Shown in pieces: positions 35,066-36,164 of a stretch of DNA of 64,000 nt. A model generated the notes under the pieces. It had not been told where the DNA came from. It was given only the letters and a program-made list of their open reading frames with translations, and searched no databases. Source of the stretch: an uncultured Eubacteriales bacterium (lineage in GTDB: Bacteria; Bacillota; Clostridia; TANB77; CAG-508). The position numbers and the translations under genes are program-made. The stretch covers positions 31,635 through 95,634 of the forward strand of contig CASFHP010000004.1 of assembly GCA_949294555.1 (NCBI GenBank), read 5' to 3'. The stretch's first letter is position 1, and each line of letters starts with the position of its first letter.

Positions 35066-35126
35066 AGGAGGAAATTCATGTTTAAATTACATTCAGAATA
35101 TAAACCAACAGGAGATCAACCACAAG
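35066..35126 (+). repeat. Direct repeat copy 1 (SD plus the first 16 codons of uvrB)
   Basis: AGGAGGAAA..ATGTTTAAATTACATTCAGAATATAAACCAACAGGAGA(T/C)CAACCACAAG. From the ATG onward it is 48/49 identical to 36116-36164. Confidence 0.9.
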
Positions 35127-36106
35127 TAGCTTTACAAAATAATATAATTATTTATACAACAGAAGATGGACAAGTTAAGATAGAAGTTAGGTTAGAAGAT
35201 GAAAATGTATGGTTAACCCAAAATGCAATGGCTGAATTATTTGATACTACAAAGCAAAATATAAGTGGACATATACAAAATATTTTCAAAGAAGGAGAAT
35301 TAGAAGAAAATTCAGTTGTAAAGGAATCCTTGACAACTGCAAAGGATGGAAAAAATTACAATACTAAATTTTACAATTTAGATTTAATAATATCAGTAGG
35401 GTATAGAGTAAAATCAATTCGTGGTACACAATTTAGAATATGGGCAAATAAATTAATAAAAGAATATCTAATAAAAGGATATAACCTGGATAGTGATAGA
35501 ATGAAAAATAATGGTGGTGGAATATATTTTGAAGAGTTACTTGAAAAAATTAGAGATATTCGTTCATCAGAAAAAGTATTTTGGAGAAAAATACTAGATA
35601 TCTATGCTACAAGTGTAGACTATGATGCAAATAATGAATTAACAAAACAGTTTTTTAAAACAGTTCAGAATAAAATGCATTATGCAGTTCATGGAAATAC
35701 AGCAGCAGAGGTTATATATAACAGAGTAGATAGTAATAAGGAAAATATTGGATTAACAAATTTTAAAGGAGATATACCGACAAGAGCAGAAACAGAAGTT
35801 GCTAAGAATTATTTAACAGAACAAGAATTACAAATACTAAATAGAATGGTATCAGCATATTTAGATGTGGCTGAAATTAATGCTTTGAGTATGCATGCAA
35901 TGACAATGAAAGATTGGATAAATGAATTAGATAGTTTCCTTAAGATGACAAGAAAAGATATTTTAAATAATAAAGGCACAGTATCACATAAAAAAGCATT
36001 AGAAAAAGCACACCAAGAATATGATAAATATATGAAAAATCATTTAACAACGGCTGAAAAAGATTACTTAAAGATATTAGGAGAAGACATTAGAAAGTTA
36101 GAATAG
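35078..36106 (+). CDS. RhuM-family protein fused to the first 16 codons of uvrB
   Basis: After [16 protein letters not shown] the sequence reads IIIYTTEDGQVKIEVRLEDENVWLTQNAMAELF...YNLDLIISVGYRVKSIRGTQFRIWANKLIKEYLIKGY, the pattern of RhuM-family (PF13310-type) proteins. Confidence 0.8.
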   Translation: MFKLHSEYKPTGDQPQVALQNNIIIYTTEDGQVKIEVRLEDENVWLTQNAMAELFDTTKQNISGHIQNIFKEGELEENSVVKESLTTAKDGKNYNTKFYNLDLIISVGYRVKSIRGTQFRIWANKLIKEYLIKGYNLDSDRMKNNGGGIYFEELLEKIRDIRSSEKVFWRKILDIYATSVDYDANNELTKQFFKTVQNKMHYAVHGNTAAEVIYNRVDSNKENIGLTNFKGDIPTRAETEVAKNYLTEQELQILNRMVSAYLDVAEINALSMHAMTMKDWINELDSFLKMTRKDILNNKGTVSHKKALEKAHQEYDKYMKNHLTTAEKDYLKILGEDIRKLE

Positions 36107-36164
36107 GAGGAAAACATGTTTAAATTACATTCAGAATATAAACCAACAGGAGACCAACCACAAG
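36104..36164 (+). repeat. Direct repeat copy 2 (the authentic uvrB SD and start)
   Basis: See 35066-35126. The stop codon of the RhuM ORF (36104-36106) lies inside this SD. Confidence 0.9.

Follow-up and report, generated by a model that had tools for sequence, protein, structure and literature searches.

A chimeric rhuM gene with a displaced uvrB start in uncultured gut Clostridia, a possible remnant of a decayed uvrB-targeting island

The window analysed here is a stretch of 64,000 nucleotides (nt) from an uncultured Eubacteriales bacterium (contig CASFHP010000004.1, positions 31,635 to 95,634; G+C content 28%). It contains a gene of the RhuM family whose own start has been replaced by a displaced start of uvrB, the DNA-repair gene that follows it. 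We read this unit as a fixed rearrangement of single origin, the most reduced remnant of a decayed island that targeted uvrB, and not as a self-mobile cassette; the probability of this reading is put at about 0.5. The evidence comes from the junctions of the locus itself and from the architecture of related uvrB loci.

The uvrB-rhuM fusion in the window

A repeat search returned a gap-free direct repeat of 50 nt (35077–35126 and 36115–36164), with 49 of 50 positions identical and a spacing of 1038 nt. Counted from the ATG, the copies at 35078–35126 and 36116–36164 differ only by GAT/GAC, in agreement with the 48/49 identity given in an earlier first-pass annotation of this DNA. The 49-mer from the ATG has exactly two copies in the window, where none are expected (100 shuffles). 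One copy now begins a chimeric open reading frame (ORF) and the other begins uvrB. The features of the locus are listed below, with strand in brackets and protein lengths in amino acids (aa).

33759–35059 (+): upstream gene, split in the window; a single 433-aa ORF in sister strains
35066–35071 (+): Shine-Dalgarno sequence (SD) AGGAGG of the chimera, 6 nt 5' of the ATG
35078–35126 (+): repeat copy 1, the displaced uvrB start and now the RhuM leader; ATG, 15 codons and base 1 of codon 17
35078–36106 (+): chimeric ORF of 342 aa; UvrB residues 1–16, a junction Val, and RhuM from about codon 5
35127–36103 (+): rhuM-derived body, mosaic
36104–36110 (+): rhuM stop TAG (36104–36106) overlapping AGGAGG (36105–36110) of uvrB
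36116–36164 (+): repeat copy 2, the start of intact uvrB
36116–38077 (+): intact uvrB, 653 aa, uninterrupted frame
36368–36381 (+): unoccupied core TATTTTGTTTCTTA, uvrB codons 85–89, the target of four or five elements in relatives
38109–38154 (no strand): 21-nt inverted repeat, 95% complementary, just 3' of uvrB; the probable end of the transcription unit

The first-pass annotation had included the SD in the duplicated segment. The repeat stands from 35077 and 36115 onward; the SD stretches lie outside its gap-free part, with an indel between AGGAGGAAATTCATG and AGGAGGAAAACATG. A duplicated SD was rejected because of this indel and because the upstream SD is closer to the native uvrB SD of relatives (CAAGGAGGGAAATATG). 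The SD at 35066–35071 is probably the native uvrB SD itself, as it aligns with CAAGGAGGGAAATATG of loci L014 and L102 and with locus L023.

The chimera reads as 16 UvrB-derived residues followed by VALQNN. Its residues 79–322 match the Pfam model PF13310 Virulence_RhuM (E 6e-105; 350 bits against a cut-off of 33.7; profile positions 1–248 of 252), and the protein matches PADLOC candidate PDC-S05 (E 3e-151); the RhuM family is taken here as PF13310, COG3943 and PDC-S05. NCBIfam models gave no match to the protein, and the PDB holds no solved structure related to RhuM by sequence. An AlphaFold2 model of the chimera, built with 34 close homologues, had a mean predicted local distance difference test score (pLDDT) of 49 and was not used.

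Native RhuM relatives start with MNNDL(A/T)N(S/L)QNNIIIY. The in-frame fusion to RhuM proposed earlier is present, and the RhuM part is not quite complete, because about the first four codons have been replaced. The junction bases TAGCT belong to rhuM itself, as alleles with D-L-A-N show, and therefore there is no filler DNA: the joint is a clean one between uvrB base 49 and about rhuM codon 5. There is no clear microhomology at CAAG/TAGCT. Among the 120 closest RhuM clusters nearly all are 331 aa long with their own start, and two, the window protein and P0001, have a uvrB-derived leader. A cluster look-up found that P0125, P0131 and P0135 also carry it. Two other RhuM proteins, P0084 (498 aa) and P0099 (495 aa), appear as a complete ECF-type sigma-70 factor fused in frame to a full RhuM, which is 85–86% identical to the RhuM of the window, and may be either real fusions or the result of lost stops; a sigma factor gene is also found near rhuM in locus L044.

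The second repeat copy opens an intact uvrB with the full domain set (ResIII, UvrB_inter, Helicase_C, UvrB and UVR in Pfam), and the rhuM stop lies inside its SD; both had been described in the first-pass annotation. The uvrB ATG is 5 nt past the AGGAGG and 9 nt past the stop. The same tight stop/SD junction, TAGGAGGAAAACATG, is present in L014, L102 and L117. Also as described earlier, the unit is free of recombinases, since neither the genes called in the 6 kb to each side nor a motif scan yielded one, and the repeat search found no terminal inverted repeat at the cassette ends.

Carriers, haplotypes and empty sites

The exact chimera was found on at least 13 metagenome contigs and in the metagenome-assembled genome GCA_949292925.1, with unchanged synteny throughout. 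Its carriers belong to two sister lineages of uncultured gut Clostridia. The junction is one and the same in all 18 carrier loci, CAAG/TAGCTTTACAAAAT, with uvrB nt 49 next to about rhuM codon 5. They fall into two haplotypes; the sequence of L013 is too short to reveal its upstream context.

Type I (window, L001–L002, L004–L012, L022): leader 49/50 identical to uvrB; chimera directly after the stop of the 433-aa-type gene
Type II (L014, L015, L102, L103): leader ATGCTCAAATCACATTCAAAATATAATTCAACAGAAAACCAACCACAAG (MLKSHSKYNSTENQPQ); preceded by a HAD-family gene and a promoter region of ca. 170 nt

The two haplotypes share both the identical junction and the downstream TAGGAGGAAAACATG, which shows that the fusion arose only once. 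An exact scan of the JGI metagenome contigs did not find the junction GTAGCTTTACAAAATAATATAAT.

Repeat copy 1 (35078–35126) is identical across 12 type I loci, while the type II leader has seven differences from its own uvrB and nine from the window leader. The seven positions, of 48, that separate the type II leader from its own uvrB are all non-synonymous. This is about the neutral drift expected from the synonymous divergence (dS) of uvrB between the haplotypes, 0.14–0.20. The amino acid sequence of the leader is therefore unconstrained, and only the start signals and the frame matter. A diverged leader was also considered as proof of great age and rejected, since 7/48 nt is close to the neutral prediction. 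Chance, conversion or a younger copy could each account for the near-identity of the two copies in the window. According to the first-pass annotation, the same arrangement with diverged repeats in all relatives would mean an ancient fixed duplication; this is half the case, in that only the lineage of L014, L015, L102 and L103 has a diverged upstream repeat.

A species scan with one genome per species gave 80 uvrB loci with protein identities of 83–99%, and in eight of these rhuM, or a fragment of it, is found in the 8 kb upstream of uvrB. Empty sites, which the annotation had suggested looking for in relatives, do exist: the nearest other species, L023 (UvrB 98% identical) and L024 (97%), have the native uvrB promoter and SD directly 5' of uvrB. 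The promoter region of L023 is clearly homologous to the region 5' of the type II leader (L014/L102), and therefore the ancestral chimera stood behind the native uvrB promoter and SD.

The window has since lost this promoter region. The stop of the upstream gene, GAATAAATAA, directly precedes the chimera SD, while in L023 and L014 ca. 1 kb (one gene and the uvrB promoter region) lies between the 433-aa gene and the uvrB start. The sequence just before uvrB in L023 is GATAAATAAAATTACAAGGAGG, and GAATAAATAAGAAGGAGGAAATTCATG is found at the equivalent place in the window. These sequences would fit a deletion of ca. 1 kb between short ATAAATAA repeats, removing one gene and the promoter region. 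The upstream gene itself has a 1-nt deletion at about 34576, giving ORFs at 33759–34580 (273 aa) and 34661–35059 (132 aa). There are no terminator-like sites between 33652 and 38156. Because the promoter region is deleted and no such site intervenes, transcription of the chimera and uvrB probably runs on from the upstream 433-aa-type gene.

Integrative elements at uvrB codon 88/89

The RhuM of cluster P0010, 91% identical, sits in an island of 3.75 kb that is flanked by 247-nt uvrB repeats (87–90% identical). The order within this island is:

1. uvrB promoter, SD and 88 uvrB codons ending in a stop
2. left arm of 180 nt
3. rhuM with its own extended -10 promoter and a TTG start
4. histidine phosphatase, NUDIX protein and a DUF4258/MqsA-like pair
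5. right arm, then SD and uvrB

Thus rhuM is the first island gene behind the uvrB stub, and in the same orientation. Loci L018 and L020 have tandem arrays in which the second uvrB stretch also breaks off after 88 codons. Behind it comes either a ParA/ParB element, whose left arm is the same (95% identical), or a type IV secretion system (T4SS) element. The latter is conjugative in content, with an HTH_36 Rep-like protein, pilin, PrgI, VirB4, TrbL, an M23 peptidase, a sortase and a TED thioester adhesin. It is ca. 100% identical in four chromosomal contexts (L110–L113, 9425–20768), each time directly behind a displaced uvrB stub, which has 88 codons in three of the four and is frameshifted to ca. 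62 aa in L112. Such near-identity across four backgrounds indicates a recent and wide spread.

In a stub alignment, all of the 88-codon stubs end at one base, ...TATTTTGTnTCnTA/GTAYGA. What follows belongs to four or five different elements, namely the rhuM, ParA/ParB and T4SS elements, a small island in L057 and another element in L104. A common stub end of this kind is characteristic of elements that integrate site-specifically at uvrB codon 88/89 and bring a replacement for the 5' end with them. Integration is argued from the identity of the junctions alone, because no recombinase was identified and the far ends of the elements were not reached. Pfam searches near the stubs and upstream of uvrB in L018, L020, L035, L039, L057, L104 and L109 gave no recombinase. 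Two hops along the T4SS element, short of its far end, met a coupling protein, HU, a Spo0A-like regulator and a sigma factor, and no integrase. A crude scan for tyrosine and serine recombinase motifs in the whole window and all loci returned one unrelated hit only.

Several other features of these islands were observed. A 40-nt motif, AAAGTTTGTGACCCAATTCGTGTAGAATTCGTGCAT, recurs in the uvrB-associated islands, where it separates gene modules, and also precedes an unrelated RhuM (L016–L021 at about 5873, 7765 and 9085; L018 at 9624; L074 at 477–511; L109 at 7880–7914), and its inverse (TTACACGAATT...GGTCACAAGG) forms the arm just 5' of the rebuilt uvrB. It may be an operator or promoter module. 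The island motif GTTTGTGACCYAATTCGTGTA is absent from the viral contigs scanned and from the window. In L016 the uvrB behind the island (9244–11201) is broken into three ORFs of 271, 202 and 103 aa, and in L017 and L019 it is split only at a CGG site described below; uvrB may be decaying in some island carriers.

The idea of the first-pass annotation that the arrangement reflects integrating elements was thus right about the target, in that the 5' end of uvrB appears to be an attachment site with rhuM as first cargo. The window unit itself shows no sign of being mobile. A true minimal mobile cassette would consist of rhuM, the SD and 49 nt of uvrB, inserting repeatedly at codon 16/17 by means of a recombinase acting in trans or of an activity of RhuM itself. 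Direct repeats do flank a single gene, empty sites exist, rhuM is more similar between the lineages than its flanks are, and integrative elements that could supply functions in trans circulate in the clade. However, the core at codon 88/89 (window ca. 36368–36381) lies outside the 50-nt repeat, which ends at codon 16/17. There is a single junction in the 18 carriers, confined to two sister lineages, and not the independent insertions in different backgrounds that a cassette would leave. The rarity of the leader among the 120 closest RhuM clusters, where all but two have their own start, and the absence of the junction from the JGI metagenomes also count against a cassette, as does the decay of the repeat in one lineage that has retained the gene. 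The mobile cassette proposed earlier is therefore not borne out, and we regard it as very improbable.

Intermediate loci and proposed origin

Some loci are intermediate between a full island and the window. L109, with a RhuM 93% identical, has the native promoter and SD, a uvrB stub of 27 codons, a left arm truncated at its 5' end, the rhuM promoter and rhuM with its own start, followed after 28 nt by uvrB. It appears to be an L017-type locus minus 235 nt between the stub and the arm, and minus all cargo and the right arm. L025 has a truncated rhuM, then the right arm and uvrB. In L040, L038 and L117 a native-start rhuM is tight against uvrB, with the same junction in L117 as in the window (TAAAATAGGAGGAAAACATG). 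L074 has a RhuM of 47% identity, 200 nt 5' of uvrB and preceded by the 40-nt island motif, and right-arm fragments lie immediately 5' of uvrB in L035, L039, L085, L094 and L099. In total, rhuM adjoins uvrB in at least five architectures. Most simply, the window is the most reduced member of this series, with a 16-codon stub fused to rhuM and the rhuM stop in the uvrB SD.

The history that we propose would run as follows. Integrative elements insert at one nucleotide of uvrB, at codon 88/89. Each insertion leaves the native promoter, the SD and the first 88 codons upstream as a dead stub, and each element brings its own SD and first 88 codons, rebuilding uvrB. In an ancestor of the window lineage such an island would have decayed, losing the cargo between rhuM and the rebuilt uvrB and leaving the rhuM stop in the uvrB SD. 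A second, illegitimate deletion would then have fused the stub, at its base 49, in frame with rhuM at about codon 5, removing the promoter, SD and start of rhuM, so that RhuM would now depend on the original SD and ATG of uvrB. With the rhuM promoter and start deleted, only an in-frame fusion keeps rhuM expressed, which would explain the in-frame joint without design. Translation of uvrB would proceed from the second start, 9 nt past the rhuM stop. A further deletion between the ATAAATAA repeats would have taken the uvrB promoter region in the window.

A local tandem duplication could produce the same joint. Unequal exchange at a locus with a native-start rhuM upstream of uvrB, as found tight against it in L117, L040, L038 and L109, would copy everything between rhuM codon 5 and uvrB codon 16, yielding exactly the observed uvrB16::rhuM5 joint, the first copy being deleted later. 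An extra precise deletion would be needed to restore the native promoter and SD before the leader (as in L014/L102), and no locus with two rhuM genes was found. This origin is improbable.

Selection and recombination

Compared with the island alleles, rhuM has a ratio of non-synonymous to synonymous divergence (dN/dS) of 0.05–0.07 at a dS of ca. 0.8, which indicates strong purifying selection. RhuM is a conserved, selected protein, predicted to be of the toxin/defence type. Between type I and type II the dS is 0.07 in rhuM and 0.14–0.20 in uvrB; the uvrB dS to the empty-site locus L023 is 0.27. Most of the rhuM dS between the haplotypes is held by a mosaic patch at 35258–35378 (residues ca. 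70–100, FKEGELEENSVVKESLTTAKDGKNYNTKF vs FDEGELDEKATVKESLTVQTEGNRTVQRKV), which is 67–83% identical where the rest is 97–100% identical. The patch appears to have been exchanged or to be diversifying.

The window is 100% identical to L004 and L022 from 34140 to ca. 36140 and 94% identical beyond, which places a recombination breakpoint at the start of uvrB. The 5' kilobase of the window uvrB is 98–100% identical to that of type II locus L102. Within rhuM, 35440–36100 is 95–100% identical to the native-start rhuM of L117, another species whose uvrB is only 78–85% identical to that of the window, while the first ca. 360 nt are closest to island-type alleles (83–92%). Between species whose uvrB genes otherwise share only 78–85% identity, the figure rises to 97–100% over the 3' part of rhuM, the SD and roughly the first 60 nt of uvrB; therefore, uvrB-anchored transfer does occur. 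The arrangement is passed on by descent within the two sister lineages, and homologous recombination reshuffles the locus; crossovers fall within rhuM and within the conserved first ca. 60 nt of uvrB.

Transfer of this kind makes a one-step capture conceivable, and we consider it the leading alternative, although on balance unlikely. DNA from a donor of L117 or L040 type would have entered an empty site by homology-facilitated illegitimate recombination, its right end recombining homologously in uvrB and its left end (about rhuM codon 5) being joined illegitimately to uvrB base 49. The first 49 bases would be duplicated automatically, and no ancestor with an integrated island is needed. The donor-type locus L117, which has both the tight junction TAAAATAGGAGGAAAACATG and the native rhuM start, fits this well, as do the transfer between species described above and the placement of the two copies, the upstream one in the native promoter context and the downstream one with a donor-type SD. 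The 5' end of the window uvrB is also native-like. The difficulties are that the joint has no obvious microhomology, that the 5' third of the window rhuM is of island type rather than L117 type, which capture leaves unexplained, and that L109 shows stubs beside rhuM arising by deletion from integrated islands.

Some of the same observations weigh against descent from a decayed island. An ancestor with an 88-codon stub was not seen in the window's own lineage, and no recombinase was identified for the elements that target uvrB. The dS of ca. 0.8 between the window rhuM and the known island alleles means that the descent cannot be recent. The 5' 264 nt of the window uvrB are 94.7% identical to L023 and the rest of the gene 94.6%; as this part is no more diverged than the rest, its supply by an element is not demonstrable. 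When examined for a foreign origin, the 264 nt were indistinguishable from the rest of the gene, in a comparison that recombination makes uninformative. Lastly, the SD of the downstream copy in L109 resembles the native SD, which fits an insertion with target duplication equally well.

A broader idea, which we hold to be doubtful, is that rhuM, the overlapping SD and the ultra-conserved first 50–60 nt of uvrB form a recombinase-free hitch-hiker that spreads between species by uvrB-anchored recombination. Selection would repeatedly wire RhuM to the signals of uvrB, with RhuM acting in a response to DNA damage or phage induction. This draws on the five or more architectures, one of them with the unrelated RhuM of 47% identity.

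Regulation and possible function of RhuM

The first-pass annotation had placed rhuM under the control of a DNA-damage repair gene. This does not hold for the window, where the native promoter region is deleted and no LexA box was found. Allowing one mismatch, there is no Cheo-type LexA box (GAAC-N4-GTTC) upstream of rhuM or uvrB in the window and nine related loci, and there is no exact LexA box anywhere in the window. Control by DNA damage may be closer to the truth for type II, which keeps the native uvrB promoter.

A literature search on the function of RhuM returned predictions only. One prediction makes it a toxin domain that accompanies restriction loci (PMC3710099), and COG3943 has been listed with the genes that gut genera share (PMC10782964). 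In another organism, LexA binding has been reported upstream of a rhuM from a gut metagenome, annotated as a 'death-on-curing family protein', with the canonical LexA box TCGAACAAATGTTCGA 96 nt upstream (Cornish et al. 2014, PMC3998124). That gene resembles the present ones as a gut-bacterial rhuM; wiring to the DNA-damage regulon is shown for the Cornish case, which has a LexA box, while the loci examined here are without one. Because of that report and the five or more rhuM/uvrB architectures, a functional link between RhuM and DNA damage is a reasonable suggestion. The present loci add to the hint of Cornish et al. (2014) that gut-bacterial rhuM tends to be wired to the expression of DNA repair, and this wiring offers a handle on the function of the RhuM family.

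Other features of uvrB and the window

An extra C is present at uvrB codon 40/41 in L045, L062, L064, L083, L088, L090 and L096. It is also found in the displaced uvrB copy of L021 and, at codon ca. 82, in the second uvrB copy of L017–L020; the window uvrB (ca. 36230) is without it. With the extra base, GGTTCT-GGAAAAACA (Walker A, G S G K T) reads TCT-CGG-AAA..., with CGG in the 0 frame, and skipping it restores S-G-K-T-F-T and a full UvrB of 651–654 aa. The 607 codons downstream have a dN/dS of 0.02–0.07 at a dS of 0.33–1.5 between carriers, which are interspersed with non-carriers. CGG accounts for two of the 15,420 codons in the long ORFs of the window. These observations point to conserved +1 frameshifting, or bypass, at a starved CGG codon within this DNA-repair gene.

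Upstream of the locus, 30197–33337 of the window encodes a repetitive surface-type protein of 1046 aa, with lengths of 1016–1046 aa between strains. Its Asn-Thr run (NTNTNT...), especially at 32990–33100, is encoded by imperfect 18-nt repeats.

Comparison with known systems

Some integrative elements insert into the 5' part of a gene and supply it with a new 5' end; their decay gives derivatives that lack a recombinase and are flanked by attachment-site repeats. An example is the cis-mobilisable elements (CIME) of Streptococcus thermophilus, formed by accretion and decay of integrative and conjugative elements (ICE). The window unit is like a CIME in that direct repeats of the target 5' end flank a cargo, the target is rebuilt and no recombinase is present, and in that the relatives L018 and L020 hold an island and a conjugative element in tandem at one site. 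It differs in its 50-nt repeat without the crossover core and in the displaced start, which has been co-opted as the translation start of the cargo. Lacking the codon 88/89 core, the repeat would not be mobilisable as a CIME. Among the hallmarks of ICE, integrative and mobilisable elements (IME) and CIME, the locus has direct repeats of the target, with empty sites in relatives; its repeats are without the crossover core, no recombinase was found among the called genes nearby or by the motif scan, and there are no independent insertions in different backgrounds.

SpyCIM1-type chromosomal islands of Streptococcus pyogenes integrate in the 5' end of the DNA-repair gene mutL, encode an integrase, and excise and re-integrate as a switch. 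The likeness lies in the target, in that a mobile island enters a DNA-repair gene at its 5' end and ties its own state to expression of that gene; here the target is uvrB and nothing suggests switching. Integron cassettes are similar as promoterless single genes that use outside expression signals. The window unit differs from them in having no attC, integron integrase or array, a gap of just 9 nt from the rhuM stop to the uvrB ATG, no inverted repeat at its ends, and a start codon borrowed by in-frame fusion.

Homology-facilitated illegitimate recombination was reportedly described in naturally transformable bacteria by de Vries and Wackernagel and by Prudhomme and colleagues, both in 2002. 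One homologous anchor (uvrB) and one illegitimate joint, followed by homologous spread, would resemble it. The usual outcome is a deletion of resident DNA by the anchor, whereas here there is a duplication of 49 nt and no microhomology at the joint.

Set beside these systems, the window arrangement alone is a curiosity with no new mechanism. The wider locus has more to offer. The literature search found no report of uvrB as an attachment site, and the element family at uvrB appears to be undescribed; codon 88/89 would be a shared attachment point of several mobile elements in abundant, uncultured gut Clostridia with small genomes. The loci would form a graded decay series of one island, ending in a cargo gene rescued by in-frame fusion to the displaced start of its target – a concrete case in which a toxin or defence gene of the accessory kind has become a fixed part of a housekeeping operon.

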